Positions 26,773 to 43,415 of a stretch of DNA of 43,415 nucleotides are shown here, piece after piece. Below the pieces are notes generated by a model. It saw only the letters and a list, made by a program, of their open reading frames with translations, was not told the origin of the DNA and ran no database searches. A program made the position numbers and the translations under genes. This stretch comes from a virus (Duplodnaviria; Caudoviricetes), in the IMG/VR virus record IMGVR_UViG_3300032231_000007, positions 1 through 43,415 of that record; one strand, given 5' to 3'. Numbering within the stretch: position 1 is the stretch's first letter; the number at the start of each line of letters is the position of its first letter.

Positions 26773-26806
26773 GAAGGGGAGGCCATATATTAGCTTGGTG
26801 TTACCC
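26773..26806 (+). repeat. Right half of attC-like site at array entry
   Basis: 30 bp (26773-26802) identical to 29922-29951. Confidence 0.85.
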
Positions 26807-27158
26807 GTAATGCTAAATAACTTTTGTGCCATTACATACATCACAGGTAAATGAAGTTGCTGAGCTTGTCCATTGGTCTACGTCACCTGCTACCCCCGGT
26901 GGCTTACTTACAATTCCTTGCCCATTGCACTTAGGGCATAGTTGTAAAGCACTACGGGTAACACTAAATAAACCCAAATTCTTAACCTTACTGTGTAGCT
27001 CATTTATAATTTGCTCATGTTCTGTAAGTGGGTCTTCACTTGCTGTTTCTAATTCACTTCTTACTATGGTTACTGTACCGTTTGGTCGTTCTATTACTAT
27101 TTGCTTTGCCATCGTTTCTACGTATTTAATCGGTTAAAAATCAGTGTTTATTATTTCC
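26800..27158. mobile_element. Duplicated gene cassette unit
   Basis: GTTACCCGTA / TACGGGTAAC (26953-26962) ends; second copy spans the window ends with different neighbours. Confidence 0.85.
26813..27112 (-). CDS. Cassette protein with DnaJ-type Zn finger
   Basis: CPKCNGQG...CDVCNGTK; reads through AAC box as ...LFSVTRS... Confidence 0.75.
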   Translation of the reverse strand: MAKQIVIERPNGTVTIVRSELETASEDPLTEHEQIINELHSKVKNLGLFSVTRSALQLCPKCNGQGIVSKPPGVAGDVDQWTSSATSFTCDVCNGTKVI

Positions 27159-27165
27159 GTTAGGC
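26956..27165 (+). repeat. attC-like hairpin site containing a gene start
   Basis: GGGTAAC; arms 26968-26987 / 27132-27151 pair 16/20; GTTAGGC at 27159. Confidence 0.75.
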
Positions 27166-27182
27166 TTCATTTAGCCAACGCA

Positions 27183-27356
27183 CTAATCAATTACTTCCAC
27201 ATCTTCAAAAAACTCATCTTTAAAAATATCAATATTGTCAGCATAAATAACCAATTCACCAGCGTTTACACTTATCTCTAAGTTTTCCAAATCGTTTTCC
27301 AAATCTGTTATTTCAACAGCATACCATTTCTGGCTTCTTTTTACTATTTTATACAT
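27183..27356 (-). CDS. Cassette hypothetical protein (start likely MYKIVK)
   Basis: Between GTTAGGCTT (27159) and AAGCCTAAC (27389-27397). Confidence 0.65.
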   Translation of the reverse strand: MYKIVKRSQKWYAVEITDLENDLENLEISVNAGELVIYADNIDIFKDEFFEDVEVID

Positions 27357-27390
27357 AATCTTGTTTTTATCCCACCGCACAAAAACGAAA

Positions 27391-27507
27391 GCCTAACAAC
27401 AAATAAATGCCATTGTCAGTATTTCAATTGTGGGTAAGTAGTTATTATTCAATTTATCTCTTTTTTTCAAATTAAGTGTTCAACGGCATTTATTTAAACC
27501 GTTGTAA
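27391..27507 (+). repeat. attC-like hairpin site
   Basis: GCCTAAC; arms 27401-27415 / 27481-27495 pair 14/15; GTT at 27501. Confidence 0.85.
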
Positions 27508-27594
27508 ACAATAGGGGCTGAAAGGCTTGCTACAATTAAGTGCGGATTTAAAGAACTCTCACCTTTCATTTTTAATTTTGTTTTTGAATATCCC

Positions 27595-27622
27595 CTACTG
27601 CTCATATACTTTGCCGTTGTTA
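27595..27622 (+). repeat. Degenerate site, right arm plus GTT only
   Basis: CTACTGCTCATA matches right arm at 415-426; GTT at 27616. Confidence 0.6.
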
Positions 27623-27634
27623 AAAATAATAAAA

Positions 27635-28006
27635 TTATTCGCTTAGTCCTTCATTCAAACTTTCTGCAAATTTCTTTATTATTTGTTCTTTGGTTATTAA
27701 GCCATCTTTTACAGCTTTCTGTATTGCACCTCTTGGTAAATCTTCATCTTCTTTCCTATCATAATAAAGAAAGTCAGACACTAAATCTTCTATTGTATTT
27801 TCTATGTTTTCAATCATGATTTTACTATTTATGTTAATATTTCTTTTTTTGCAAAATTCATCCCATTCTTCTGGAGTCATTAACTCCTTGGTTTTGCCAA
27901 CATCCTTAACTTTCTTAACTAATTCTTGCACTTCTAGGCTACCCTCGAAATTATATTTTACGTAAGGGTGAAGGCCGCTATTGGAACTACAGTGTGATAT
28001 TCTCAT
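27635..28006 (-). CDS. Hypothetical protein (alternative start at 27817)
   Basis: ORF; LYYDRKEDEDL motif in C-terminal half. Confidence 0.55.
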   Translation of the reverse strand: MRISHCSSNSGLHPYVKYNFEGSLEVQELVKKVKDVGKTKELMTPEEWDEFCKKRNININSKIMIENIENTIEDLVSDFLYYDRKEDEDLPRGAIQKAVKDGLITKEQIIKKFAESLNEGLSE

Positions 28007-28208
28007 TTCTTTATTTTTATTAAAGGCTACTTAATATTTTCTAACCATATATTATAATTAGTTTCTCCTTTTTTTGTAAGATAATACTTGCCATTTTTCT
28101 TCATAAACCAACCTAGGTTTACTTTCGTTGATGTGCCCCCTTCAATAAATGAATCAAATGGCTTATGATTATTTTTATCCCACCACCCGGAAACTTCAAT
28201 CTGCTCTA

Positions 28209-28472
28209 CTATTTTAGGGTTAAATTCTTTCGCGTCTTCTGTTTTTTTATGCTCATATTTACAGCATGATACGTTAATTGATTCGCTAAAATCATAGCAG
28301 CTTTAGGAGACAGATTAAACATCAGCGATTTCATTCCTAATCTATTCTCTGCAATAAAATACTCGTTAGCTGATTCTTTGTCGAATACTTTCAACTCAAT
28401 TGTTATGACGCTTCCGGTAATTTGAGTGCTTACCCTTGAGTTTCGCTTTGGCTTAGTTGTTAGGCTATTCAT
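28209..28472 (-). CDS. Hypothetical protein
   Basis: Packed ORF. Confidence 0.55.
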   Translation of the reverse strand: MNSLTTKPKRNSRVSTQITGSVITIELKVFDKESANEYFIAENRLGMKSLMFNLSPKAAMILANQLTYHAVNMSIKKQKTRKNLTLK

Positions 28473-28765
28473 CTTTTCAGTCGTTTATTTACTATTGTAT
28501 AATCTTTCTTTAAAACCATATCGCTATCTGCCCATTTTTGGAACGCTTCACGAGCTCCTAAATGATAATAATTGATTCCTTCATAGGCGATGGTTAGGTC
28601 GTGGACTTCGCCAGTTGCTTTGCATTGCACACGCTTCCCGGAATTCCTGGTGCTGATATAAACATTGAAATATTTATCTTTGTGCGCCACTCCTGTAGCA
28701 TGGTCGAGCACAAATGTTTTTAGTCTTTTATACCCCGTTCTTTTAATGTTTTCCGGTATAATCAT
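28469..28765 (-). CDS. Hypothetical protein
   Basis: Packed ORF. Confidence 0.55.
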   Translation of the reverse strand: MIIPENIKRTGYKRLKTFVLDHATGVAHKDKYFNVYISTRNSGKRVQCKATGEVHDLTIAYEGINYYHLGAREAFQKWADSDMVLKKDYTIVNKRLKR

Positions 28766-28976
28766 TTTCGTTTATTTCGTTTAACTCCTTAATTGCTCAC
28801 ACCCAAGGCAAATGCCCTTAATGCCAAATTGATGCGGCTTTCTGTATTTTTTACAGCTCGAACAAATACGGCTTATCCTGTTAGTGCAGCCTTCCTTTGT
28901 GTGTACAAATGGCTTGCCCGGCTTAAAATCTTGATCTGATCCTTTAATCATTTTAGTGGCTCTCGGTTCTCTTATA

Positions 28977-29033
28977 TAAAATTAACTCTTATGAATGTGA
29001 ATGACAAGTTAATTATAAAATATATTTTTATAA
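28977..29033 (-). promoter_or_regulatory. Promoter plus putative operator
   Basis: CTTG-N20-TAATTTTA; same 21 bp element as 4993-5013 at the same offset. Confidence 0.65.
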
Positions 29034-29114
29034 GTAAAATTATTGCCACTATTAGCAATATTATAACTGGCCAGTAATATCGATTTTCAAATAGGTAATA
29101 TTTTGTAATTTTTC

Positions 29115-29393
29115 TCATAACTTATCGTGCAATTGATGACACTCCCTACATCTAGGGTGTATGTTTCTTATGTCCCAAGCCAATTCCGTGCGCCCTTCCT
29201 TTTGGCAGCGATCAACACTAATATCATGACTGCAATCGATGTATACCCCGGAAGCTCGCCCACAATCTACGCAAAAGTTATAACCATGCTCTAGCAATTG
29301 GTTATCTAAAACTAGTTTTTTAGCATTGCGAACTTGCAGGTCTACTGCTGACTTTTTAACACGCTCTCCGGAAGAGGTTTTATAACTGTTCAT
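29115..29393 (-). CDS. HNH (NinG-like) endonuclease
   Basis: CVDC...CSH...NIHPRCRECH. Confidence 0.7.
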   Translation of the reverse strand: MNSYKTSSGERVKKSAVDLQVRNAKKLVLDNQLLEHGYNFCVDCGRASGVYIDCSHDISVDRCQKEGRTELAWDIRNIHPRCRECHQLHDKL

Positions 29394-29740
29394 TTGCGCT
29401 TTATTACATGAATTTCCTTACCTATTAAAGCTTTAAACAATTTAGCCTTTAGCCTGAATATTGGAGTTACTACCCCCTTGGTGTCTTCGTAAGAGATTAG
29501 CCCATTATTATAAATGACGACAAAGTCAACCTTTACCCAGGCTATCAATTTGCCGTTCACAATAAGATCAACCCTCTCTTGCATTCTGAAGTCAGCTATT
29601 TCCCCATCCCTTTTTCTTAGCTTTAAAATATTATAATAGTCACGCTCCCATTTGCTGTCAAATGTGATGCCGTCCGAGACCGCTTTCTTAGCCCCGTATT
29701 TATTTCGCTTTTTCAGCTTCTTGTATTCTGTTATATTCAT
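29390..29740 (-). CDS. DUF1064 family PD-(D/E)XK endonuclease
   Basis: NKYGAKK, DGITFDSKWE, VDF...EDTKG..T.IFRLKAKL. Confidence 0.85.
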   Translation of the reverse strand: MNITEYKKLKKRNKYGAKKAVSDGITFDSKWERDYYNILKLRKRDGEIADFRMQERVDLIVNGKLIAWVKVDFVVIYNNGLISYEDTKGVVTPIFRLKAKLFKALIGKEIHVIKRK

Positions 29741-29892
29741 GCCAATGAAGCGTAAATTAAAGTAGCCATTATTATAATATTGGCTATCAATAATATTAGG
29801 TTAAAATAAAAGGCTCCGGATATTAGTTTCTTGCTACTCATAATCTTCTTTTTAAAATTTTTTATGGCATATCTGCGAAGGGCAGAGACGCC

Positions 29893-29955
29893 AGTTAACA
29901 GTCGCTAATATCAAGCCTCCTGAAGGGGAGGCCATATATTAGCTTGGTGTTGTAT
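29893..29955 (+). repeat. attC-like hairpin site (short)
   Basis: AGTTAAC; GCTAATAT/ATATTAGC and GCCTCC/GGAGGC stems; GTT at 29949. Confidence 0.75.
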
Positions 29956-30033
29956 TCCATTGCGCCAAAAAGTATATTTATAAAATTGAAAAGTAGTAGT
30001 GGCGCAACGTAAGCTTGCCGAAAAAGGCAAGCA

Positions 30034-30670
30034 ATACAACACCATATATACTTCATGGCTGGGTCAGCATTTCAATTTAGCATTCTACAAGTTTGACCAA
30101 AAATAAAAAGCCGACCCGCTTTAGTTTTTTCAAAACTATTTGGATTTTTCAGTCATCAACTTTCCATACTCCTTTAATGCTTCATCAAATGTTTTACCGA
30201 AAGCATAGTTATCTGATTCTTGCAAGTTAATAAAGTCTAATCCGTGGGCGCAATACTCGTTCCCATCTTTTTCAACTTTAACTTTCCACCAATCATTATC
30301 CACATTTTTACCACCACAATCATTGCAAACCCAAAAACCTCCATACTGGAAAGGGCAACCGCCGCAGCATTTGCATCTAAATTTATGTGTAAATGCAATT
30401 TCTCCTTTCTTTGCCATGCTTTCGGCATATTCATAACCTTGCAATCTTGCGTTTATGTCATGGTGTCCGTCACCAAAATTAGGCTTGCGGTGTCCCATTA
30501 TAAACATATTAAATCCACAGGCAACGCTTGAGTTGCTGGTTTTAATTAAATCCTGTGCATACTTTAATTTTTCCATTTTTTGCCTCCTCTATTTTTTCTT
30601 TTTTAAGTTAGTATTTCAAATCAAATTCAGTGGGTAATTTCGCCACGAAAGCATATATTTTTCGTTATAT
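30034..30670 (+). repeat. Giant attC-like site with an entire gene in the loop
   Basis: ATACAAC; arms 30044-30059 / 30642-30658 (2 A.C, 1 bulge); GTT at 30664. Confidence 0.7.
30136..30576 (-). CDS. Cys-rich hypothetical protein inside site loop
   Basis: CKCCGGC...CNDC; FINLQES..AFG motif. Confidence 0.7.
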   Translation of the reverse strand: MEKLKYAQDLIKTSNSSVACGFNMFIMGHRKPNFGDGHHDINARLQGYEYAESMAKKGEIAFTHKFRCKCCGGCPFQYGGFWVCNDCGGKNVDNDWWKVKVEKDGNEYCAHGLDFINLQESDNYAFGKTFDEALKEYGKLMTEKSK

Positions 30671-30877
30671 GCCATTGGGTGCAATTGTGTCAAGCGTATT
30701 GCACAGCATATCTTCAATTATAATTTCGTGTGGTTTATCATCTCGGTAATCTACTCTTATAGCTATATCTTCTTTATCAGCATTTGCCAATTCTGCCACA
30801 TTTACAAAACAACGGCATATAACATCAGCTATATGTAATGCCTTGCCGTTCTCATCAAATATTTTTAAATCTTCCAT
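30665..30877 (-). CDS. Cassette protein starting in site loop (start likely MEDLKI)
   Basis: GTTATATGCC / GGCATATAAC ends; reads through as ...IADVICR... Confidence 0.7.
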   Translation of the reverse strand: MEDLKIFDENGKALHIADVICRCFVNVAELANADKEDIAIRVDYRDDKPHEIIIEDMLCNTLDTIAPNGI

Positions 30878-30945
30878 CTTTGTATCTTTTATTAAAGTTT
30901 GGTGTAGTTTTGTAAAAGGCACTACACATAGCCAAACCGTTATGA
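30817..30945 (+). repeat. attC-like hairpin site containing a gene start
   Basis: ATATAAC; arms 30828-30844 / 30916-30932 pair 15/17; GTT at 30939. Confidence 0.85.
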
Positions 30946-30949
30946 TCAA

Positions 30950-31321
30950 TTAAGATCGTCTGTGCTCGAAGCATTCCTGCGTATCTAATTGCAATACTTC
31001 AGGGATGCAAGATACTTGCTTATTCAGCTTTCCACAGTCACCATAATGCAAAGCACATTCAGCTTCATCAAATTGAAAAACCAGCTTTCTAGCTTCTTTT
31101 AGCAGTTCTTTTGCTTTCAATTTTTCGCCTTTCTCAATCCAAAATTGAGCCCTTTTAATCTTCCTCAATCTCTTATTATCAAAGTAGTCCTTTTGCCATT
31201 TATAATGAAGGTCTACTGATTTTTGTCTTCTGAACATTGACCGTTTGAAGTGTTTGCAATCACTGCAATTACAATCACTGCAATTACAATCAAGTATTTG
31301 TAAATCGAATTTATCTATCAT
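30950..31321 (-). CDS. Cassette Cys-rich protein with 15 bp tandem duplication
   Basis: DCNCSDCNCSDC; flanked by GTTATGATC and GATCATAAAC (31344-31353). Confidence 0.7.
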   Translation of the reverse strand: MIDKFDLQILDCNCSDCNCSDCKHFKRSMFRRQKSVDLHYKWQKDYFDNKRLRKIKRAQFWIEKGEKLKAKELLKEARKLVFQFDEAECALHYGDCGKLNKQVSCIPEVLQLDTQECFEHRRS

Positions 31322-31451
31322 TGTTTTCCTGTTTAAATTAAAAGATCATAAACACTAGGTAAATTTAATTGCTCTCTATTGCCCTTTATGTAGTTCTGGT
31401 CTATAAACTTTGATGTAACTCGCAATTACACCTTTTGCATTGTTCTTTTAT

Positions 31452-31814
31452 TTACGCTTCTAGTATCTCAATATACTTGTTTTCAAAAACATCATATCCA
31501 CTATTTGAAAGATGCTCCATTCTATATTTGTTGTCTGACACTTTAATTATTCTTGCTTCAAAGTTCAGTCCACCATCCTCATTAACCATGAATATACCTT
31601 GTACACCGCTCAGTCTTATAGCAGAAGGGCTATAAGACCCTGAATTTGTACCTTGAAATAAGTTAATAGCAGTAAGGCATTTATCAATTGTGTCATGCGT
31701 TAATTCCCCAACCCATTGCGTTTCTTTTATCGTTTTTAAAGCTGATACTTTTGCGTTGTTTTCTGCTGTGTTTTCTAAAGCTTTCATTTCGTTGTTTGTT
31801 TGCGTGTTAATCAT
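31452..31814 (-). CDS. Hypothetical protein
   Basis: ORF behind promoter; start may be MKAL at 31787. Confidence 0.6.
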   Translation of the reverse strand: MINTQTNNEMKALENTAENNAKVSALKTIKETQWVGELTHDTIDKCLTAINLFQGTNSGSYSPSAIRLSGVQGIFMVNEDGGLNFEARIIKVSDNKYRMEHLSNSGYDVFENKYIEILEA

Positions 31815-31818
31815 ATAG

Positions 31819-31850: not shown

Positions 31851-31863
31851 TATTTGGTAAAGT

Positions 31864-33242: not shown

Positions 33243-33866
33243 TTATATTAAGCCATCTAAATCTTCGTTTTCAACTTCCCATGATTTTGAGAAGTCTTCA
33301 TCCATAAAGGCTTCCGCAAGCCCTGTAACCTGTTTTAACCTTAATACTTCGTCCGCATCCATTCCAAGTTCTTTGCCTATGCGGGCATTCGTCCAATTAT
33401 GCTTTTTAAGCATTACAATAAGATTAGCTGATAATTCAACTTGATGTGTTCCTCTTGCAATGTTGTGCCGAACTGTTGATGTTATTCTGTCTTGTATGTT
33501 TTTATCAAGCTTACTGATTGGTAAATAACCTTTCAGGCTATCACGTATTACCTTGTCATTTGCAGCATGAGTTCGCCTGTGAAATCCATCTACAACAACA
33601 TACTTATCATTGTCATTTGCCGCTACAACTGGCATAGTTAAACCATCTTTTCTAATCGAAAGATTCAACAACTTCATTTCAGGTGGAGCAACCTTGTTTG
33701 GGTTATAATCATTAGCTTTTACATATTCAACTGGAACAAGCTGAATATTCAAAACAGGATGTTTCAATCCAATAAAATCATAAAGTTGTTGAGTTACCTC
33801 ATTGTAAATTTCAACTTTTTTATCAAAAGCGGATTCCTTATACTTTTCAAGTAATTCATGTATCAT
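33243..33866 (-). CDS. ibrB: IbrB-like ParB/Sulfiredoxin-domain protein
   Basis: ANDYNPNKVAPPEMKLL..SI..DG.T.P, VVDGFHR, STVRHNIARGTH, ELGMDADEVLRLKQ. Confidence 0.88.
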   Translation of the reverse strand: MIHELLEKYKESAFDKKVEIYNEVTQQLYDFIGLKHPVLNIQLVPVEYVKANDYNPNKVAPPEMKLLNLSIRKDGLTMPVVAANDNDKYVVVDGFHRRTHAANDKVIRDSLKGYLPISKLDKNIQDRITSTVRHNIARGTHQVELSANLIVMLKKHNWTNARIGKELGMDADEVLRLKQVTGLAEAFMDEDFSKSWEVENEDLDGLI

Positions 33867-35068
33867 AATTGCTGGTATTTTTCAATCATTTGTAATTGGC
33901 GTTCCATTTCTTTTTTGGTCTGTGAAAAAGATAAACCTTTGCACCAATAATCATTTTTTAAAAGCACCTTACAAACACGCCTCCACGATGGAGCTTTCTT
34001 TGCAGCTTCCATTTTCGGGTCTGACTTATCTGGCATAGTCTCAAATCCTTCTTTTTTCCAATAACCCCAGAATTTATTTATCTTCTTCTGATAATGTTCC
34101 CGTAGATATGGAGGCATAGTTTCAAGTAGAAATTTTGCGTAGCTCTCATAGGTGTGTCCTTTAGGTAAATTAATTTTATAGTGCCCAAGTGTGGTTTTAT
34201 TATTTTCTACATATCTATTCCCAAAATTTGCTCCTTCTACCCTATTAACAACTTTTGCCCAAGTCTCAGGTTCTAATATTTTGAATAAATAGAGCCCTTG
34301 CCTTTGGTCATCGCCATAAGGCTGGCACAATCGTTGTTTATGAATAGACACGCCTGCGAGATTCATTATATCATATATTTTATTATATTTCCATCTGAAT
34401 TTTCCATTGGCCACCCAAACATCTTCAGTCCTCCAATCATAAATAGGGAAAGCACTATAAATTTCCCATTTATTATCTTCTCTAAATAATTTTGTTGTCC
34501 ATTGGTTGCCCTTGTATTTAATTTTCGAATCGCTCGCAATAGTTCTATATCTATTTAAACTTTCATCTGAACGAATACCAACTACTTGGCATGTTTTTTT
34601 TCCATTTGAAAACCATTTTGCAAATTCTGAAACAAATTCCTCAAACTCCATTCCTACACGAAAAAATGGGAAATAATTAACATCTGATATTACACTTTTA
34701 TGAATAGGTAAATCTCTCACCCAAGCCTCTTTTTTGCTTTTATCCCAACATAACCAATGAGGCTGAAACTGAGAAACAGCATTTCTTAAATGCATAGGCA
34801 AGCACACCCAATATGCTTTTACTTCATTCCTATTAAACATTTCATGCGTATATTCGATAGCATGCTTATATTGTGCCTCAAAATCTATATACAATGCATG
34901 AACCGGGAGTTTCCCCATTTCTTTGGCTACCTCAATAGCCAAGTTTAATAATACTCCACTATCTTTCCCATTTGAAAACGACACACACACTCTATCAAAT
35001 TCTGAAAATATTATTCTGAAACGATTTTTTGCAGCTTCATGAACGTTTATATCAAGATATTTTTTCAT
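33863..35068 (-). CDS. ibrA: IbrA-like PAPS reductase/DUF3440 protein
   Basis: PP-loop SFSNGKDS, GIRSDESLNR, PIYDW...DVW, QRLCQPYG, PSWRR.CK.LLKND. Confidence 0.88.
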   Translation of the reverse strand: MKKYLDINVHEAAKNRFRIIFSEFDRVCVSFSNGKDSGVLLNLAIEVAKEMGKLPVHALYIDFEAQYKHAIEYTHEMFNRNEVKAYWVCLPMHLRNAVSQFQPHWLCWDKSKKEAWVRDLPIHKSVISDVNYFPFFRVGMEFEEFVSEFAKWFSNGKKTCQVVGIRSDESLNRYRTIASDSKIKYKGNQWTTKLFREDNKWEIYSAFPIYDWRTEDVWVANGKFRWKYNKIYDIMNLAGVSIHKQRLCQPYGDDQRQGLYLFKILEPETWAKVVNRVEGANFGNRYVENNKTTLGHYKINLPKGHTYESYAKFLLETMPPYLREHYQKKINKFWGYWKKEGFETMPDKSDPKMEAAKKAPSWRRVCKVLLKNDYWCKGLSFSQTKKEMERQLQMIEKYQQL

Positions 35069-36264
35069 AAATCCTTTCTTAATTCTTCAATTGTTTTCTC
35101 ATTAAAAACATCTAGCAAATTTCTTTTACGTTCAATATTTTGGTTTATCATTGACTCTAACCCTACATTTCCAGTAAGATCATAATATGTACATTCATCA
35201 TTCTGCCCCTCTCGGTAAATTCTCCTTTCTATTTGCTCACGCTGTGCATAATCCCAGGTCTTATCCCAAAATATGATTGTATTGTATGCTTGCAGATTAA
35301 GACCGTATGAGTGTTTTGCAATGCTCTTTATCTCAACGTCTTTGTAATATTCTTTAAGTGCCTCCTGGGTATCAATGTACTTAGCATAAATCAGTACTTT
35401 CGACTTATCCGAAGCATTGATTATTTTATCTACAACGTCAAATTTTGCAGGAGACAATGAATAATTATGCTGCATCTTTTGGGTAATTTTCAAAAAGATA
35501 TTATTGTTTATTGCTAATAGATATTCATCATCAAGGTATTTGGTCTTTAGCCTATCATGTTCCTCATGCTCTTCATCTGTAAGAAAATAATCGACATCAA
35601 TGTGTTGCTGACCAATGCTAAGGGACAATTTGCTTTCAAAAATAAAAGGCTCAATCAAAGAATATAGATAATCAATATTATGATATTTCTTAATAAACTC
35701 TTTACTATATGAACTGCCAAACCCTTTTGAATGATAGGTAACTTTCACGTATTCGCAAAATGTGTTCTTAAATTCAGCAAGCCCCATTTTTAGGATTTTA
35801 GGGCTTAGAAATTCCATTTGAGACCATAAGTCAAGCAGATTCCTTGAAAGGGGAGTCCCGTTAAGTATAAGCCTGTACTGTGATATTTCAGTTAACCTCA
35901 TTAGTCGCTGCGTTCTGTTTGCATCAGCGTTCTTTATTTTCAAACTTTCATCACATACAACAAAAGCCTTTTTTGCTTTCTCAACTTTGCTATGATAATC
36001 AAGATAAATTCGGTCGCCATTCTGAATACTTTCAATGCCAACAATGTCACAGTCCATTCCTCCCCATTTGTTAATCTCTGCTTGCAAATTTTCTTTTGTT
36101 TGAAATGGAGTAAACCAAAGCACATAATCAGCATTTGTGTTTTTGATAAGCTCTAAAGCGGAACGTGTTTTACCTGTGCCAGGCTCCATAAATAAAGCTC
36201 CGCACCTGACAGGATTTAGCTTATCAATGGCTTTTATTTGACTATTTAAAAAGGCGGTCGTCAT
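35065..36264 (-). CDS. SNF2-family helicase/ATPase
   Basis: MEPGTGKT, VCDES, LNGTP, DLWSQ..FL, GLNLQ, Q...RIYR.GQ. Confidence 0.85.
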   Translation of the reverse strand: MTTAFLNSQIKAIDKLNPVRCGALFMEPGTGKTRSALELIKNTNADYVLWFTPFQTKENLQAEINKWGGMDCDIVGIESIQNGDRIYLDYHSKVEKAKKAFVVCDESLKIKNADANRTQRLMRLTEISQYRLILNGTPLSRNLLDLWSQMEFLSPKILKMGLAEFKNTFCEYVKVTYHSKGFGSSYSKEFIKKYHNIDYLYSLIEPFIFESKLSLSIGQQHIDVDYFLTDEEHEEHDRLKTKYLDDEYLLAINNNIFLKITQKMQHNYSLSPAKFDVVDKIINASDKSKVLIYAKYIDTQEALKEYYKDVEIKSIAKHSYGLNLQAYNTIIFWDKTWDYAQREQIERRIYREGQNDECTYYDLTGNVGLESMINQNIERKRNLLDVFNEKTIEELRKDL

Positions 36265-36523: not shown

Positions 36524-36980
36524 TTAGAATTGTCTTAACTTTAAAATCAGAATTTCCACTACATTCTTCTAATCTGAAATTTTCTGCACCAATTTCAGTC
36601 AAATATCTTTCAGCATCTTCCAAATCAGATAAATCACCGATACAGTCAGCATACTTATTTTCTTTTTCATCAAACACCACAAATACTTTTTCGGCAGTAA
36701 TAAAATCAACATCTTCCTGAACTGAATCAATTATTTGTTGTTGTTGTGATTTAATCCAATTCCAATCCTGTGAAGGACAATCAATGTAGCAACATACCTT
36801 AAATTCGCCATTATCTAACTGGCAAACATAAGTAGCCGTTTTCATCTTTTTTGTATTATGCCCTCTGTCAAGGTAAACTCTTTTCTTGTCGCCTTTTTCC
36901 CAATACTTTCCGTTTAATTTTTCTGCTAATTCTTGAAGTGCTAAAGCTTTCATTGTAGTATCGTTTAGTTCTTGTTTCAT
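36516..36980 (-). CDS. Hypothetical protein
   Basis: WEKGDKKRVY; first gene after promoter. Confidence 0.6.
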   Translation of the reverse strand: MKQELNDTTMKALALQELAEKLNGKYWEKGDKKRVYLDRGHNTKKMKTATYVCQLDNGEFKVCCYIDCPSQDWNWIKSQQQQIIDSVQEDVDFITAEKVFVVFDEKENKYADCIGDLSDLEDAERYLTEIGAENFRLEECSGNSDFKVKTILND

Positions 36981-36988
36981 TGTACTAG

Positions 36989-37020
36989 TAAAGGTCGTAC
37001 ATTATAGTTTACCAAACAAG
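36989..37020 (-). promoter_or_regulatory. Bacteroidota-type promoter
   Basis: CTTG-N20-GACCTTTA. Confidence 0.45.
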
Positions 37021-37031
37021 CTTTTAGTCAA

Positions 37032-37220
37032 TTATCTTTTACTTTTCTTTAAATTTATTGCAAATAAATAGTCATTGCTAGTCAAGCATGTACTATTGGC
37101 TAGCTTCCTCCCTAGGTTATTAAATAGCTTTTCGTCTCTCGGCAGAGGAACCATCTCCCTTAGTAATTGAGACTTGCTAACTACTACTAAACTGTTATTC
37201 ATTTTCGATTGAAATATCAT
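37032..37220 (-). CDS. Hypothetical protein (degenerate cassette gene)
   Basis: Reads through TTGCTAAC (37174-37181) as ...VVVSKS... Confidence 0.45.
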   Translation of the reverse strand: MIFQSKMNNSLVVVSKSQLLREMVPLPRDEKLFNNLGRKLANSTCLTSNDYLFAINLKKSKR

Positions 37221-37232
37221 ATCTCCCGGGTT

Positions 37233-37301
37233 AAATTAAAGCGTAACTAATTGATATACAGGCCATTGTTCTTTAGTAAATGTGCGTTTAGCCCCTCGTT
37301 A
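37233..37301. repeat. 69 bp repeat of 43249-43317 (3 mismatches): half-site plus truncated MACISISYALI*
   Basis: Direct comparison; identity stops at GTTA. Confidence 0.9.
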
Positions 37302-37304
37302 TAT

Positions 37305-37496
37305 TTAATGCTCTGTTTCTGGTTCACATTTAACATCTTCACTTTCTCCAAAAACTTCATCAATAGTTTGTTTTGTAAATCCGTCTAATTCCATAGCCAA
37401 TCTAAAGGCTCTTTTAATAGCATAAGGATAAACACAGTCTTTTGTATCAATTGTATGTTCTGCTACTTGTTCGTTTTGTTTAATTACTATTTTCAT
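37305..37496 (-). CDS. Cassette hypothetical protein
   Basis: Between GTTATATTT and AAATATAAC (37530-37538). Confidence 0.65.
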   Translation of the reverse strand: MKIVIKQNEQVAEHTIDTKDCVYPYAIKRAFRLAMELDGFTKQTIDEVFGESEDVKCEPETEH

Positions 37497-37531
37497 CTCT
37501 ATAAATTTACTTGTTAATAACCCGCACTAAA

Positions 37532-37595
37532 ATATAACAAAGTGTAAAGTTAACCCTGCGGGTCGCTATCGCTTAACCTTACACAAACGTTATAC
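37532..37595 (+). repeat. attC-like hairpin site
   Basis: Arms 37542-37553 / 37573-37584 pair 11/12; GTT at 37589. Confidence 0.85.
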
Positions 37596-37602
37596 ACAAG
37601 CA

Positions 37603-37893
37603 CTAAAAATTATCGTTCTCGTATAAACTTACCTCAAATCCGTGAGAGAAAAAATCCCCCAGCCCACCCGCGTCAATTACGTACATCATTCCGTAATCTG
37701 GATGCACCAATGTAACTTGTGTTCCATCGTGCCATTTAATATTGTCTCCTGTTGCTCCTATGTGGTCAAGGAAGTACTCCATACTTTGGTTGTTGTCCAT
37801 TTCCATCTCTGGCGCATAGTCAATTATTCTGTACTGGTTTTCTCCTTGTTCAAATAATTCTTTTACTGTGTCTGGTAATTCGTAAGTTGCCAT
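37603..37893 (-). CDS. Cassette hypothetical protein
   Basis: Between GTTATACAC and GTGTATAAC (37944-37952). Confidence 0.7.
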   Translation of the reverse strand: MATYELPDTVKELFEQGENQYRIIDYAPEMEMDNNQSMEYFLDHIGATGDNIKWHDGTQVTLVHPDYGMMYVIDAGGLGDFFSHGFEVSLYENDNF

Positions 37894-37945
37894 CTCTATT
37901 TTTTCTTTTAGTTCGTATTAAAATTCTGTGGTGTAAAGTGCCAGT

Positions 37946-38009
37946 GTATAACAGCAAATCATACCCCATTTGTGAAAAACAAACGGTGCATATTTGCAAA
38001 CCGTTGTAT
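37946..38009 (+). repeat. attC-like hairpin site
   Basis: Arms 37954-37973 / 37979-37997 with one extrahelical C; GTT at 38003. Confidence 0.8.
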
Positions 38010-38036
38010 GCCATTAAAACGGCAAGGGTTTCACCC

Positions 38037-38359
38037 ATACAACAATGCGTATAAGCAATAAACCCTTTTCCAACGCTCATTCAATCACCGTAATAATCTT
38101 CACGTTCAATTATTTTAAACCATTCACTACCATAAGGCAAGGGTATGTCTCTACATAATTGCCTTTTACATTTAGCAATTACTACTTCATTATCGTCATT
38201 TGCATCACAATACACGATTTCTTCGCCTGAATAAGATGCAATTTGGTACTTTACTACACATCTTTGTCTTTGTTCTGTTCCGTACATATCTATTTTATTT
38301 TTAAGTTATTAAAATCCCACGCTTAAAGGGTTTACTGCTCATACGCTCGTCCGTTATGC
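38037..38359 (+). repeat. attC-like site with entire gene in loop
   Basis: Arms 38047-38067 / 38326-38346 pair 19/21 (2 A.C); GTT at 38353. Confidence 0.85.
38081..38287 (-). CDS. Hypothetical protein inside site loop
   Basis: ORF wholly between the arms. Confidence 0.65.
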   Translation of the reverse strand: MYGTEQRQRCVVKYQIASYSGEEIVYCDANDDNEVVIAKCKRQLCRDIPLPYGSEWFKIIEREDYYGD

Positions 38360-38416
38360 TTCATTGCGCCAAAGCATTAAGCCAAATTTGAAATGCAATT
38401 CGTGGCGCAACGAAAA

Positions 38417-38828
38417 GCATAACATGTGGTATAATGCAAAGCTGGTCGGCTCGTTGTAGCAACTGTTCTGTAAACTTGGAACAATTAAAAACAAAAGCCG
38501 ACGCGCCGTTCTAATCACTGTAAAAGTTTCCAGTAAATACATCAAATATATTTTTCATTTTGGTGTACATCTCTGAAACTTCACCTGCTTTTTTAAAAAA
38601 CTCTTTTCTTAATTCTTCTGTTTTCTTTTTAGCTGCAATTTGTCTTTGAACCAATTCATCTTCGTAACTGTAAGCAATATCGAGTTTTGAATTTATGGTT
38701 TTCAAATCCAACTTTGCTTCATAAATTTCAGTTTCTAAAACTTTTAATCTCTCTGTTAGTTCATGTTTTTTATCCATCTCTATTTTTGTTTTTTAATTCG
38801 TAACTAATCTTATTACCATTCGTTAGTG
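38417..38828 (+). repeat. Hybrid attC-like site with entire gene in loop
   Basis: GCATAAC; weak arms TGGTATAA / TTATTACCA; right arm shared with 41413-41456; GTT at 38822. Confidence 0.6.
38511..38777 (-). CDS. Coiled-coil hypothetical protein inside site loop
   Basis: ORF wholly between the arms. Confidence 0.65.
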   Translation of the reverse strand: MDKKHELTERLKVLETEIYEAKLDLKTINSKLDIAYSYEDELVQRQIAAKKKTEELRKEFFKKAGEVSEMYTKMKNIFDVFTGNFYSD

Positions 38829-39095
38829 TTCATTTCTCATAACCAAAATTACATCTCCATCAATAACCGAAGTTGCTGGCTTCATTGTTAATAAGGATTT
38901 GATTTGCTGAATAGCTTGCGAAGATGGCAAGGCATCTAGATAGGTGGCCGCCTGCTCTATGAGCATGAAACGCTCGCTAACATTATCTAAAGCAACATGT
39001 GAGGCTAGTTCCTTTCTAATTGCTACCTTGTAGTCATCTGGGCAGGTGTCCCAATACAATATATTTTCCAGTATTTCTCTTATCTCTTTTTTCAT
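38823..39095 (-). CDS. Cassette protein starting in site loop
   Basis: Reads through AAC box as ...LDNVSER...; stop overlaps GTT box. Confidence 0.7.
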   Translation of the reverse strand: MKKEIREILENILYWDTCPDDYKVAIRKELASHVALDNVSERFMLIEQAATYLDALPSSQAIQQIKSLLTMKPATSVIDGDVILVMRNEH

Positions 39096-39145
39096 ATCAT
39101 CGTTATTTAAACCGCCTCAAACGTTGTTTAGCCTTGTGGTTGTAG
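38975..39145 (+). repeat. attC-like hairpin site containing a gene start
   Basis: Arms 38987-39005 / 39114-39131; GTT at 39139. Confidence 0.8.
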
Positions 39146-39151
39146 GTAATA

Positions 39152-39379
39152 CTACTCAATTGCTTTAATTATAGTATTCATGGCTTCAATTACATTTGGT
39201 CGCTTATCAAATTCATGCTCTGTTTCAAGTAAATCGTTAAGCAATTTAGATAAATAATCTTTTCGAGCTTCTTTTGTCATGCAGTCGTAAGTGATAAACT
39301 CAATTAACTCTTTTCGCTCATCATGCCCAAAGCTATACTCAACTACTTCTTTAATATTAATGCTAAAATTGTATTTCAT
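39152..39379 (-). CDS. Cassette hypothetical protein
   Basis: Between GTTGTAG and CTACAAC (39413-39419). Confidence 0.65.
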   Translation of the reverse strand: MKYNFSINIKEVVEYSFGHDERKELIEFITYDCMTKEARKDYLSKLLNDLLETEHEFDKRPNVIEAMNTIIKAIE

Positions 39380-39412
39380 AATCGTTAATTTAATTAGTTA
39401 ATAATGTACTGG

Positions 39413-39479
39413 CTACAACACTATGTCATACGCCATATTCCGCTGCGCTCCATACGGACGCATACATTTAACGTTAGGC
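39413..39479 (+). repeat. attC-like hairpin site
   Basis: ATGT(C)ATACGCCATAT / ATACGGACGCATACAT with extrahelical bases; GTT at 39473. Confidence 0.8.
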
Positions 39480-39689
39480 TTCATTTGCCAACCCACGCCT
39501 ATGAAAATCATCCTGTATCATAAATTCAGTAGTCAATATATCCCCATTGCTTATTTGTAGTTGAAATTTGTTGCAGTATTTCAATCTAATGAGCCGTATA
39601 ATTTTACCACCTTTTCTTCCAAATTTATCAGTCCATTTAGGAATACTTTCTCCTAATCTGAATCCATAAAGTTTCTTTGTACGTGTCAT
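39474..39689 (-). CDS. Cassette hypothetical protein (start likely MTRTKK)
   Basis: Between GTTAGGCTT and AAGCCTAAC (39722-39730). Confidence 0.6.
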   Translation of the reverse strand: MTRTKKLYGFRLGESIPKWTDKFGRKGGKIIRLIRLKYCNKFQLQISNGDILTTEFMIQDDFHRRGLANEA

Positions 39690-39723
39690 AATCTTGTTTT
39701 TTATTCCACCCCACAAAACGAAA

Positions 39724-39856
39724 GCCTAACAATGTATAAAAATAATAGGCGGTTTCTGCGTGTAGGTAGTTTATATTCATTTAATTAACTTTATCTGTTA
39801 TCGAAGTTCAGCGTTTTAAACCGTTAAAATTTCTCTACATACACTTGTCGTTAGCG
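39724..39856 (+). repeat. attC-like hairpin site (imperfect arms)
   Basis: GCCTAAC-AATGTA ... TACAT-N-GTT at 39850. Confidence 0.65.
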
Positions 39857-40102
39857 CACATTAAGCACGCCATCAATCCATTGTTTAAGTGGTTCTCCAC
39901 TACCAACTACTTTGTGATTTATCCAAAATCTACCGTCTTTGTCGGCTACTATCTCATAATCATTACCTTCAACACATTCACCGAGAGAAGATGATAAACG
40001 TGCGCTAACGTCAGCTAAAACACATAATTGGTCTATCGCTTCCGTTAAGTCTTTAGTTCCTGCAATCGCTTGTACTACTATTTGCCTTATTTGGTCTCTC
40101 AT
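39851..40102 (-). CDS. Cassette protein starting in site loop (start likely MRDQIR)
   Basis: GTTAGCGCAC / GTGCGCTAAC ends; reads through as ...LADVSAR... Confidence 0.7.
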   Translation of the reverse strand: MRDQIRQIVVQAIAGTKDLTEAIDQLCVLADVSARLSSSLGECVEGNDYEIVADKDGRFWINHKVVGSGEPLKQWIDGVLNVR

Positions 40103-40131
40103 AATTACGTTTTTTAGCTTTATCATTATAA
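40003..40131 (+). repeat. attC-like site with ATT in place of the GTT box
   Basis: Arms 40013-40029 / 40103-40119 pair 15/17; ATTATAAACAAT at 40125. Confidence 0.7.
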
Positions 40132-40135
40132 ACAA

Positions 40136-40294
40136 TTAAAACATTATTTTTCTGCTTTCAGGTAGCTTATCTAATTCTTTATAACAATCAACACATTCAA
40201 ACTTTCCGTTCGATTTGCCAATTAAGTATTTATGCTTGCAAGCAGGTTGCTTTTTTATCTTCTGTTCTTTTTCGTATTCTTCTATTAATCCCAT
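40136..40294 (-). CDS. 52 aa Zn-ribbon protein (not in ORF track)
   Basis: CKH...CVDC. Confidence 0.5.
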   Translation of the reverse strand: MGLIEEYEKEQKIKKQPACKHKYLIGKSNGKFECVDCYKELDKLPESRKIMF

Positions 40295-40355
40295 GTTTCA
40301 ACTATTAATAATAATGTTTATAATTAACTTCTTTCTGTGTCTTTTCCATTATTAT

Positions 40356-41174
40356 TTAGTTTTTGTAATTTAATTTATCTTGTACTTCTTTTTTTACCCT
40401 CTCATAGCCAGCCTTTATCTCCCTTATTTCTCTATCTTTTTTTATTTGCTCTTCTTTGGTCTCCTTGTTCGGCTTAATTGATATTGAAGCTTTCAAGTCA
40501 TGGCAATAATTATATCCGTCAAGTTTTTCAAGCAATCCGGTAATATCTTTTTTTCGGTACTTTTTTTCTGTGACTTGCATGTAGGCTTCTAAATTCTTTT
40601 TTTGATCTCCTGGGTTCTTGCCTACAAGCCACCTCCTTACATCGGCCTCGATAATGTGAGTTGTAGGGTTACCCCTTACGTAGACCTTCCCAAGATAAGC
40701 AAAAGCTGATAAAAGGAAATCTTCAAAATTATTGTGATTTATTAAGTCTTCGCTGGTTATATTGTTATTTGTTATATTGTTAGATTGTTTATCTATACTA
40801 CCATTGCTTTGACTATTGGATCGTGTTTGCTTTGACGCATGGTTTATAAATGCTTTGTCGAGTGCTTTGTCGCTTTTTGGCATTGCACTTGCTAGGCTTA
40901 TGATGTTTGCAGAGTATTGATTTGTTGACTTTTGAACCAATTCAATGAAGCCCCACTCTACTAAATCGTTAAAATATTTTATGTACGTTTGATGCCTTTT
41001 TATTCCTATCGCATCCATTGTCATTTGACTTGGGAACCCGAACTTTTTGCGCCACCCCAATCTATTATTATGCTCTATTGCAAAGAAATAGATTGCCGTA
41101 TGATTAGGGCTTATCTTTTCTGGATTGTCAAAACTCCAATCAAACCATGCTCTAGAAAGTTCGTACCCAGTCAT
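40356..41174 (-). CDS. Replication initiator/replisome organiser
   Basis: N-terminal winged-HTH-like (NRLGW..KF...L.EWGFI) plus low-complexity S/K/N linker carrying DNA repeats. Confidence 0.7.
   Translation of the reverse strand: MTGYELSRAWFDWSFDNPEKISPNHTAIYFFAIEHNNRLGWRKKFGFPSQMTMDAIGIKRHQTYIKYFNDLVEWGFIELVQKSTNQYSANIISLASAMPKSDKALDKAFINHASKQTRSNSQSNGSIDKQSNNITNNNITSEDLINHNNFEDFLLSAFAYLGKVYVRGNPTTHIIEADVRRWLVGKNPGDQKKNLEAYMQVTEKKYRKKDITGLLEKLDGYNYCHDLKASISIKPNKETKEEQIKKDREIREIKAGYERVKKEVQDKLNYKN
40755..40871. other. Putative replication origin
   Basis: TGCTTTGWC at 40805, 40828, 40851 and 40863 next to AT-rich TTGTTA repeats. Confidence 0.55.
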
Positions 41175-41193
41175 TATTTTATTTCATGTTTAT

Positions 41194-41222
41194 GTAAATG
41201 TGCGGTTAGCCCCTTGTTAGCA
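41194..41222 (+). repeat. Half-site at array entry
   Basis: GTAAATGTGCGGTTAGCCCCTTGTTA identical to 43292-43317. Confidence 0.85.
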
Positions 41223-41237
41223 CACAATTAAAAAAGC

Positions 41238-41469
41238 AGGTAACACGTAATAAAATTAATTACTACATTTCTGCTTTTCACTCCAATATTTAGCAAATTC
41301 TATACTCCTTCTCATATGCGAGAAACTTTTATAGTTATGGTCGCCTTTAGGGTGTTTTGCTAACCAAATATTGTACGCTCGTTCCATTAATCTAAATTCT
41401 TCTTTATCCATTGTTTTTGTTTTTTAATTCGCAACTAATCTTATTACCATTCGTTACCATTCGTTAGCA
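41238..41469 (+). repeat. attC-like site with small gene in loop and doubled GTT box
   Basis: Arms 41247-41263 / 41431-41447 pair 14/17 (3 A.C); TTACCATTCG duplicated; GTT at 41453 and 41463. Confidence 0.8.
41256..41411 (-). CDS. 51 aa protein in site loop (not in ORF track)
   Basis: MDKEEFRLMERAYNIWLAKH...; leader shared with gene starting at 38777. Confidence 0.55.
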   Translation of the reverse strand: MDKEEFRLMERAYNIWLAKHPKGDHNYKSFSHMRRSIEFAKYWSEKQKCSN

Positions 41470-41691
41470 TTAATTATGCTCTCCATTTATTATATAAGTG
41501 TCGCAGTTATGGCAATGTTTAGTTATTAATTTAGCTTCGTTCTCGTTACATATCTCGCATAACTTCCCTTCGTTATTGCTAACACTAAATAAAACACATA
41601 TTAAGTCGTGTGCTTGATGTTTAGTTAGCTCTCTATTATCTAAGTCTGTTAATATACTTTTAAGTTGTTCTATATTTTTCTTTTGCATCAT
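41470..41691 (-). CDS. Cassette Zn-ribbon protein (start likely MMQKK)
   Basis: GTTAGCATTAA / TTATTGCTAAC ends; ...LFSVSNN...; CEIC..CHNC. Confidence 0.65.
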   Translation of the reverse strand: MMQKKNIEQLKSILTDLDNRELTKHQAHDLICVLFSVSNNEGKLCEICNENEAKLITKHCHNCDTYIINGEHN

Positions 41692-41892
41692 ATCGTAAGT
41701 GGCATAATTGGCATGGTTACTTTTCAATTATCTCTTTTAGCCAAAAAAATGCTCTTTCTTTAGCATCATAATCTGATAAAGCATTTTTAACAAAAATATT
41801 GCCTTTTTTATCAGAACCTTTTATATTGAAAGACACTTTATGTTCTCCATTCTCAAAAGAAACACTTGTTTTTTCTATAAATTCACTTAAAT

Positions 41893-42105
41893 TCATCTGT
41901 TTATTTTTTCTGCATTAAACCCTATATATACTGAGTTAAAGTTCAATTTCTTTTTAGCTAACTTAATAAAACATTGAGGGCAGATATTATCTTTATGGTT
42001 ATCGCATATCTCATTCCAAAGTTCGGTTGATGTTCCCCAGGGAATATTATCATTTCCGCATTTCCCGCATTTTTCTGTTTTTAAAAATCTCTCTTCTATT
42101 TTCAT
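41893..42105 (-). CDS. Zn-finger hypothetical protein
   Basis: CGKC...W...LW...ICPQCF. Confidence 0.6.
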   Translation of the reverse strand: MKIEERFLKTEKCGKCGNDNIPWGTSTELWNEICDNHKDNICPQCFIKLAKKKLNFNSVYIGFNAEKINR

Positions 42106-42136
42106 TCGCCTACTAAATACTGAGTACCTGTTTTTA

Positions 42137-42275
42137 AAAGAAAAAACCCTTTAGCAGATCAATCCGGCCTTCACTCCGAACGTCACCACTAAAGGGTTTA
42201 CGAATATCATAATAGAAATCTAATGTGAAGGACAATTCCATAATCAAAGTTAATCATTTTCCTGACAAATCCAAA
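42137..42275 (-). promoter_or_regulatory. Promoter followed by structured leader and terminator
   Basis: TTTG-N19-TAACTTTG (42245-42275); CCTTCAC/GTGAAGG pairing alternative to AAACCCTTTAG/CTAAAGGGTTT terminator stem. Confidence 0.65.
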
Positions 42276-42291
42276 TTGTTTTCAAATAAAT

Positions 42292-42885
42292 CTACCCCCA
42301 CTGCTCGGCAATAGCCTTTGCAATTCCATGGTAAGTTTTGCTTCTTAATTTTGCCCGATCCTTTGTCTTTGGTAATAAGTGCATTCTTTGGTGTCTCCCT
42401 TCTACAATATTCGTAGGCTCTAATCTTGGTAGGTTTCTAAGCCATAAGCAAGTCGCTTTCGTTTCACCGTGGCCAAACATCCAAGGTTGTAAAACTTGGT
42501 CAGGTTTTCTAAATCGGCTACTCATTACACCTATTGGGTTCTCAATACTCACTTTTATTATTTTACAATTGTATAGTTTCATAAAAAAATAAATAGCTTT
42601 TTCTCTCGCTTCTCTTCTTTCGGCACCTACCAAAACACCACTTTTCCTTGGTGGCATATCCTTGTACCATTTGTTGGCACTTATAGTTAAGTATGTACAA
42701 TCAGGGAAGAATATTCCCATATCCCATTCTTTTAAATCTATTGCCTGGAATACATCCATTTTTAAATGCCATTCAGGATGACCTCCGCTACATTCAATTA
42801 AATCGCATGAATAAGCCTCGTGCCCTCGTTTTCTTAGTTCTATTGTTACCGCTTGGCTTTCTTCACAGCCTACTAATATTTTCAT
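42292..42885 (-). CDS. Short phage-type DNA cytosine methyltransferase
   Basis: LVGCEESQ, SCDL, FPDCTYL, IENP, QPWMFGH..KATCLW, RSKT. Confidence 0.8.
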   Translation of the reverse strand: MKILVGCEESQAVTIELRKRGHEAYSCDLIECSGGHPEWHLKMDVFQAIDLKEWDMGIFFPDCTYLTISANKWYKDMPPRKSGVLVGAERREAREKAIYFFMKLYNCKIIKVSIENPIGVMSSRFRKPDQVLQPWMFGHGETKATCLWLRNLPRLEPTNIVEGRHQRMHLLPKTKDRAKLRSKTYHGIAKAIAEQWG

Positions 42886-43064
42886 AAATAAAATACTTTA
42901 TATTTTCCCTTGCCGCTGCCCTCCCATCTTTCTTTAATATCTAACCCCCTTCTGAGCTCGTGGATTCTGCCAGTAAGCCGGATTATACCCATTTTAAACC
43001 CGTCCATTGATGTTAATTCATGGCCTAATAATAATCTCGATTTAATTTTCTCTGCTTGCGTCAT
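42882..43064 (-). CDS. Small HTH protein
   Basis: LTSMDG..MGI.RL..RIHELR. Confidence 0.65.
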   Translation of the reverse strand: MTQAEKIKSRLLLGHELTSMDGFKMGIIRLTGRIHELRRGLDIKERWEGSGKGKYKVFYL

Positions 43065-43282
43065 CAGAATGGTTTTTCGTTTATTTTGATTAATTCTTTT
43101 CGTAGTTTATTTAAAGTTACAAATTTTCCTTTAATGCAGTAACCTAACGAGCCTCCATTATAGCACTTCTTTAACTGTCTGCCAGTTCTTAAATTAAACA
43201 ACTTCCCGCACTTTGACCATTGATAATAATTATAGTCTTTGTGCTGCCAAATTAAAGCGTAACTAATTGATATACAAGCCAT
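43064..43282 (-). CDS. Hypothetical protein (NUMOD4-like pattern)
   Basis: YQWSKCGKLFNLRTGRQLK...GY. Confidence 0.55.
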   Translation of the reverse strand: MACISISYALIWQHKDYNYYQWSKCGKLFNLRTGRQLKKCYNGGSLGYCIKGKFVTLNKLRKELIKINEKPF

Positions 43283-43312
43283 TGTTCTTTAGTAAATGTG
43301 CGGTTAGCCCCT

Positions 43313-43415
43313 TGTTACCCGTAATGCTAAATAACTTTTGTGCCATTACATACATCACAGGTAAATGAAGTTGCTGAGCTTGTCCATTGGTCTACGTCAC
43401 CTGCTACCCCCGGTG
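43313..43415. repeat. Exact copy of 26799-26901 (left part of duplicated cassette unit)
   Basis: Identity begins one base before the GTT box at 43314 and runs to the window end. Confidence 0.97.

Follow-up and report, generated by a model that had tools for sequence, protein, structure and literature searches.

Five integron-like cassette arrays in a tailed phage genome, likely mobilized by a borrowed Xer-like recombinase

The DNA here analysed, referred to in its full length of 43,415 nucleotides as the window, is the IMG/VR virus record IMGVR_UViG_3300032231_000007 (Duplodnaviria; Caudoviricetes), a tailed phage whose recognisable genes all lie on the minus strand. The region at approximately 5-26 kb contains the terminase, portal, capsid-type and tape-measure genes, while replication, recombination and accessory genes fill 26-43 kb together with 1-5 kb. 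The accessory region holds five arrays of integron-like gene cassettes, namely A (26800-27618), B (29897-31443), C (37298-40127), D (41216-41666) and E (from 43314, across the end of the window, to 1837), which amount to ~7.7 kb of small accessory genes in total. An original prediction, made from the letters of the window alone, had proposed about 19 hairpin sites in five arrays, one of them continuing at the window start, and the curated set is consistent with it. This set comprises 17 intact hairpin sites of 45-629 nt (that at 39728-39852 being counted with a worn right arm), a further site ending at 123 and cut off on its left by the contig gap, five damaged sites (27509, 31351, 38421, 40007 and 41581) and one orphan right half (26773-26802). 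Clustering of at least two sites without a nearby integrase is thereby seen, in five arrays.

All sites and cassettes are given on the plus strand. Array A is headed by the orphan right half-hairpin (26773-26802), matching the right half of the site at 29897-29951, and continues with the first copy of a duplicated cassette (26800-27158; body 26800-26962, hairpin 26960-27161), whose open reading frame (ORF; 26813-27112, minus strand, 99 aa) starts in the loop and has a CXXC-rich end. There follow a cassette at 27159-27503 (ORF 27183-27380, minus strand; hairpin 27395-27503) and a damaged terminal site with a shortened left arm (27501-27618). The ends of cassette 27159-27503 are common to 39473-39730 and to locus L223, but around different genes. 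Locus L223 (OP947161) is filed as a Rhodobacteraceae phage, possibly under a wrong host; hairpin sites of this kind occur in it, and the cassette ends in common are those of 27159-27397. Array B opens with a 55-nt hairpin site (29897-29951) and a cassette (29949-30666) composed of a 92-nt body and a 629-nt hairpin (30038-30666) with a loop ORF of 146 aa (30136-30576, minus strand; relatives in L093-L095 and L222). Its next cassette (30664-30941) contains an ORF (30665-30877, minus strand) starting in the hairpin 30821-30941, and the last one (30939-31443; ORF 30950-31321, minus strand) has a damaged box and a damaged site (31351-31443).

Bodies of array C start at 37298, 37589, 38003, 38353, 38822, 39139, 39473 and 39850, within 37298-40127, and are separated by hairpins at 37536-37591, 37950-38005, 38979-39141, 39417-39475 and 39728-39852, by a gene-holding hairpin (38041-38355, loop ORF 38081-38287) and by a chimeric one (38421-38824) that holds the ORF 38511-38777; in the final site (40007-40127) GTT is changed to ATT. 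The short bodies 29949-30040 and 38353-38423, in arrays B and C, are related: both contain an internal inverted repeat, and behind each come a left arm, similar in the two, and a loop that holds a gene. Array D consists of a mismatched 29-nt body, a hairpin (41242-41455) with the ORF 41256-41411, a second body (41463-41583) and a damaged site (41581-41666). Array E begins with the first part of the second copy of the duplicated cassette (43314-43415, equal to 26800-26901), which would run across an inferred 137-nt gap into 1-123. It continues over 1-1837 with the end of that cassette, bodies at 121-327, 436-709, 749-995, 1110-1459 (chimeric) and 1521-1638 (mismatched), and hairpins at 325-438, 707-751, 993-1112, 1457-1523 and 1636-1837.

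A core of the type RYYYAAC...GTTRRRY is present, the strict RRRY/RYYY consensus not being kept. As had been claimed, the GTT box that opens a body pairs with the AAC box closing the same body and not with that of its own hairpin: in 15 of the 20 bodies the four bases after GTT fully match that body's AAC box, against 0 of 17 for the hairpin's own box, and the pairs quoted as examples are located at 121/327, 436/709, 37589/37952, 39850/40009 and 30664/30823. The own-box match score is 68, compared with 33.2±4.7 in 20,000 permutations (maximum 55), a figure possibly inflated by the hand-picking of the bodies. A count of self-complementary bodies (GTT...AAC, up to 800 nt, at least 9 complementary bases) against 100 dinucleotide shuffles gave 13 in the accessory region versus 1.89±1.51 (maximum 7), an excess over shuffled sequence, as the original prediction expected, and 0 versus 1.63 in 1900-26772. 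Two of the 13 (37366/37984 and 41868/42147) lie off the arrays and are chance-like. In the virion module, where no sites had originally been seen, the covariance model returned a single match (E=0.52) and none that is credible.

Folding predictions favour the minus strand as the more stable one in 16 of the 17 sites, its predicted advantage being G:T rather than A:C oppositions. In classical integrons, as the available parts of the source describe, the recombining attC strand is the better-folding one, favoured by G:T pairs (Nivina 2016, PMC5027507). Among eight predicted duplexes, four are unbroken stems and four show isolated unpaired positions in no fixed pattern; the two or three extrahelical bases that are a feature of attC do not appear in the predicted stems, the best of which have none. 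Covariation in the site alignment is high but circular, since pairing was used to choose the sites.

All array genes in the window lie on the minus strand, antisense to the sites, with the hairpin at the gene 5' end. Because the genes are reversed, the hairpin in this position often supplies their leader or first codons. Six ORFs begin inside a hairpin loop and read through the AAC box without a change of frame; for seven, the stop codon is the TAA of a GTTA box. Taking the longest ORF as the orientation of a cassette, genes are antisense in 21 of 21 cassettes from eight other phage loci and sense in 29 of 32 host cassettes; cassette polarity is thus reversed relative to both classical and host cassettes. 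Excision is limited in the leading-template orientation, according to the accessible portion of Loot 2017; provided that replication and transcription run the same way, the reversal would place the folding strand on the lagging-strand template. No replication direction could be read in the window from skew, which is uniform. Three contigs (L039, L040 and L041), labelled Methanolobus, Gammaproteobacteria and Saccharofermentanales, contain 32 antisense cassettes out of 32 and are likely mis-binned phage DNA.

Three intact sites hold a whole ORF in their loop, beside bodies of 29-92 nt, and a relative of one such loop-held gene sits in an ordinary body in L091. The in-loop gene 30136-30576 is 72% identical in DNA to a gene of Leptospira phage LE3 (L222) that lacks a hairpin site, which hints at cross-phylum flow.

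Comparison of copies and relatives defines the moving unit as G|TT, body, AAC, right-hand hairpin and G. In the duplicated cassette, the identical stretch opens one base ahead of G|TT and closes inside the next GTTAGGC, thus covering the body plus the right-hand hairpin; over the 229 bases visible in both copies identity is 100%, and the duplication must therefore be recent. Cassette 1110 shares its left boundary with four of nine viral relatives of the 1131-1433 protein, next to three different neighbours. The start of its DNA homology lies at 1110 for L029 and L030 and at 1106 for L031 and L034, and three distinct left flanks precede it. L030 and L034 retain the same right hairpin, followed by different next cassettes. 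Cassette 39473 aligns from GTT to GTT, hairpin included, with phage G002 (L031, a complete 93-kb phage with 39 site matches and no PF00589 match), and one GTT-box base and the matching AAC-box base have changed together. This change is compensatory, and the two boxes of cassette 39473 pair only in the excised circle. Finally, in a comparison of four cultured Polaribacter phages of the same site family, Danklef_5 and Danklef_1 differ from Danklef_2 and Danklef_4 by a 781-nt methylase cassette, present or absent exactly at the box and with its hairpin. Gain and loss of accessory genes at GTT boxes, as originally proposed, is thereby borne out by the duplicate, by relatives sharing cassettes and by the Danklef indel.

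Arrays C, D and E are headed by a short motif (TTAGCC, four bases, G|TT), of which the window contains four exact copies, at 37276-37301 (array C, as part of an 80-nt repeat of 43249-43328), 41194-41219 (array D, upstream of the replication-type gene 40356-41174), 43292-43317 (array E) and 3303-3339. It has the same geometry as the heads found beside Xer-like recombinases (ATATA plus ~5 bases before G|TT), with the other arm type, and represents a candidate attI-like entry site. The fourth copy has no hairpin behind it and may be either an unoccupied entry site or a decayed one-cassette array. Joining in silico the head of array E to the array tail matches the 3315 site at 23 of 25 positions; against an empty site there, the same tail opens an ordinary cassette in L162, and this assignment is possible but rather doubtful. 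The motif was also considered as a family-wide attI and rejected: elsewhere its 18-mer has no matches and its 15-mer lacks hairpins in 39 of 39 viral matches, which makes it specific to this phage.

Regarding the recombinase, neither PF00589, the host-recombinase profile nor PF00239 matches the window at E≤10, in agreement with the claimed lack of a tyrosine or serine recombinase in the genome (record completeness score, 85%), and the intI gene in cis that marks a complete integron is lacking from the window. PF00589 likewise has no match in two complete phages with 39 and 2 site matches. A site model built from 50 sites matches 43 of 101 Bacteroidota genomes scanned (32 candidates scored per genome), and one tyrosine recombinase family is present in 10 of 20 host array-end stretches, six members pointing in the direction of the cassettes and four divergent, with a GTT box close to the gene. 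Host tyrosine recombinases next to the same site family, for which the original prediction had suggested looking, are thereby found. The eight host enzymes scanned score best on NF040815; on the IntI model TIGR02249 (cut-off 265) all eight stay below the cut-off, with 187-216 bits in two pieces. They lack the IntI insertion (I2), ~43 residues of IntI4 being missing in that region, and the family differs from host XerC/D-like proteins in catalytic spacing (64-65 versus 70-72 residues). A related recombinase lies beside at least two sites in nine of 80 viral loci (three of the nine being identical copies), eight of which have mostly antisense cassettes. Supply in trans, as first proposed, thus agrees with the lack of a recombinase in the phage and with the candidate at host arrays, while the related enzyme of other phages makes the host only one of the possible sources; the helper may come from the host, a prophage or a co-infecting phage.

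The five arrays constitute a real, recently active-looking cassette system with G|TT boundaries, and we consider with reasonable confidence that its cassettes are moved as circles by a borrowed Xer-like tyrosine recombinase, from a Bacteroidota host or from another phage. The enzyme would act on the folded minus strand of each hairpin and cut at its AAC. Excision would yield a circle that brings the cassette's own GTT and AAC boxes together as a pair, and insertion would follow either at a different hairpin or at an array head in double-stranded form (6-nt box, 4 nt, G|TT). The phage RecT likely adds a homology-driven second layer, swapping cargo and hairpins and giving rise to the chimeric and gene-in-loop sites. 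The integron-cassette signature of the original prediction stands in that the boxes pair only in the circle, and has to be modified in that the candidate enzyme is Xer-like, without the IntI insertion, and polarity is reversed. In short, the arrays work like those of an integron but fail membership on the integrase, the I2 insertion, the extrahelical bases and the gene polarity.

Several observations weigh against mobilization of this kind. Six sites are damaged, so that parts of the arrays are decaying; five of the 20 bodies are mismatched, identical body ends wrap different genes and hairpins, and site-less instances of cargo genes exist (L033, L094 and Leptospira phage LE3). Cassette 1110 has a foreign right end and only four of nine relatives of its protein have its left boundary. 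Regarding breakpoints in relatives, those of cassettes 1110 and 39473 and of the 781-nt indel fall at boxes, as expected, while the majority of the insertions and deletions that distinguish Danklef strains, a second methylase among them, map away from the arrays and their sites. The head motif of the window differs from the ATATA-type heads adjoining recombinases, and 10 of the 20 host array-end stretches have no recombinase. The circular junctions that the original prediction suggested looking for were not found among the contigs of the source run, 74% of the run being covered; four joints listed there had sides shorter than 30 nt and were set aside. Array order cannot be compared with sister genomes, because no close whole-genome relative turned up in either the terminase search (only relatives of 46-62%) or the RecT search (none in viral contigs; among metagenomes, the record of the window itself, a 1.3-kb contig at 77% and one weak match).

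Among other explanations, an ancestor of the phage may have carried and then lost the recombinase, leaving largely static arrays whose only changes come from homologous or illegitimate recombination. The nine viral loci with an adjoining recombinase, eight of them with mostly antisense cassettes, and the six damaged sites, one with GTT turned into ATT, would suit this history, which we nevertheless regard as unlikely: the duplicate is identical over all its visible bases and ends at boxes, and the Danklef strains differ by a precise cassette with only a 43-codon 'integrase' annotated in them. Somewhat less probable still is that the RecT-like annealase and a resolvase-like nuclease (29390-29740) move genes via the short homology of arms and boxes, no site-specific enzyme acting in the phage. 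Shared ends around different genes, chimeric sites and the 80-nt head duplication do look homology-driven, and the RecT gene adjoins array E. However, neighbouring sites have little common sequence beyond the boxes, and homologous exchange would neither maintain box complementarity within a body, as in the compensatory change of cassette 39473, nor put breakpoints at G|TT between unrelated flanks.

It is more improbable again that the sites are attC of the ordinary kind, recombined by a classical host IntI. None of the eight host recombinases reaches the IntI cut-off (the 101 genomes not having been searched for distant IntI), extrahelical bases are absent from the stems predicted for the best sites, and P12002L_attC1, a member of this family, is the site that IntI1 did not recombine according to the accessible parts of Qi et al. 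2023; these points outweigh an AAC/GTT core, 7-nt box complementarity and a G:T strand skew as in attC, together with the five phage sites that IntI1 did recombine in the same report. Hardly credible, in our view, is that the hairpins are RNA elements of small early genes (terminators or leaders) and resemble cassette sites only by coincidence. They do stand at gene 5' ends on the coding strand, which is the better-folding one. An RNA structure does not account for the complementary far body ends, for the G|TT breakpoints or for oppositely oriented host arrays beside a recombinase; terminator-like matches are moreover at chance level, with 4 versus 3.4±1.9 expected in 36900-43415. A promoter scan was likewise at chance level.

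With regard to known systems, integrase-less attC clusters (CALINs) in virulent phages, 17 in 10,705 phages, are reported in the consulted parts of Qi et al. 2023 (PMC9892861), so that the broad claim of such clusters in phages is already in print. Those clusters and the present ones share attC-like sites without integrase between small phage genes. Two P12002L sites were tested there, while the model here gives 11 matches at E≤0.5 in that phage, and the same parts of that report do not describe the reversed polarity, the G|TT breakpoints, the loop genes or the Xer-like partner. Their P12002L_attC1 is one of six phage sites and the only one that IntI1 did not recombine; the present site model matches it at E=1.3e-4 and, since it belongs to this site family, that failure fits a different enzyme. 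P12002L_attC2, which occurs twice in its genome, has no match to the model. The attC2 copies in L089 (~29150-29240 and ~37180-37270) each end in a GTT box and resemble an array-head half site.

Classical integrons, as described in the portions available of three reports (Nivina 2016, PMC5027507; Escudero 2016, PMC4792948; Cury 2016, PMC4889954), share the AAC/GTT core, the G|TT crossover, boxes fully paired only in the circle, one favoured strand and tandem arrays. They differ from the present system in that here there is no cis integrase, the partner enzyme lacks I2, few or no extrahelical bases are predicted, the phage genes run antisense and are preceded by the site at the 5' end, and loops of up to 629 nt can hold a gene. 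The closest mechanistic parallel is CTXphi with the host XerCD, as that integrase-less phage uses a folded single strand without extrahelical bases and a borrowed Xer-type enzyme without I2 (Escudero 2016, PMC4792948, in its available parts). There, however, a whole genome integrates at one site, whereas here many small cassettes lie in a tailed phage genome, and the candidate enzyme forms a family separate from XerC/D-like proteins. The attG secondary insertion sites, in the accessible part of Loot et al. (bioRxiv 10.1101/2022.09.11.507474), provide with their off-platform double-stranded insertion a model for array origin; they concern IntI in bacterial chromosomes, in contrast to a short head motif present in four copies in one phage. 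The literature search, which did not extend to subscription papers, turned up no account of the Bacteroidota Xer-like system, and the main text of the Danklef paper contains no 'integron', 'cassette' or 'attC'.

Beyond this genome, we lean slightly towards the view that Bacteroidota possess a second integron-type system, with an Xer-like enzyme without I2 and bulge-free hairpins, which lytic phages would exploit in trans. Their cassettes would be reversed, their entry sites their own and their genes carried in body or loop, and accessory genes and protein halves would be shuffled during infection. Such a system would offer a site-specific mechanism for part of the mosaicism of phage genomes, a problem of long standing usually ascribed to homologous or illegitimate recombination, and would challenge the rule that hairpin-cassette recombination requires extrahelical bases and the IntI insertion. 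Most sites of this kind seem to be overlooked in standard searches for integrons, as the 2 tested in print and the 11 model matches in P12002L illustrate. To this picture the present genome contributes a precise internal duplication and a compensatory box change, and Danklef a cultured test pair.

The host is likely a member of Bacteroidota, as judged from a replication-type gene (40356-41174) 66% identical to that of Polaribacter phage Danklef, from a virion module related to Polaribacter phage P12002L (terminase 32%, portal 29%) and from a hairpin that has 91% identity with a hairpin of Cellulophaga phage phi18:3 and 84% with a Bizionia one. Regarding the record itself, the final 102 bases of the window equal 26800-26901 and the initial 127 bases equal 27039-27165, and therefore both ends lie inside one repeat. 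In the run holding this DNA, the repeat is a 367-nt contig of its own (26799-27165) with a depth of 23.6 versus 14.6 and 13.5 for its two neighbours (~1.7x), a run that is probably the source of the record, so that this depth is not independent evidence. The simplest closure would be a 43,552-bp circle, with 137 bases of the second repeat copy missing from the record. Against a single circle, the contig for 27136-43345 is not among the pieces listed, and the graph can also be read as two circles.

Next to array E lies the gene of the RecT/Bet-like annealing protein (2103-2918, minus strand; PHROG 2780, E=1.9e-25; PF03837), a possible second exchange route between cassettes rather than the cassette recombinase. 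Its 77%-identical relative in L087 has a short hairpin of this site family at its end, and an array is likely at the same place in that phage. An orphan DNA methyltransferase (phrog_757; 42292-42885, minus strand) is located between arrays D and E, outside any cassette. At 33243-36264 (minus strand), a ParB-N protein, a PAPS-reductase/DUF3440 protein and an SNF2-type helicase stand in a row, possibly for DNA modification, in what we take to resemble an IbrB/IbrA-type block. The window has no tRNA genes. In the tail region, a gene at 7688-8479 is duplicated in tandem (275 nt at 87% identity), and an AT-rich repeat, possibly regulatory, is common to two intergenic regions, 4983-5033 and 29003-29033.

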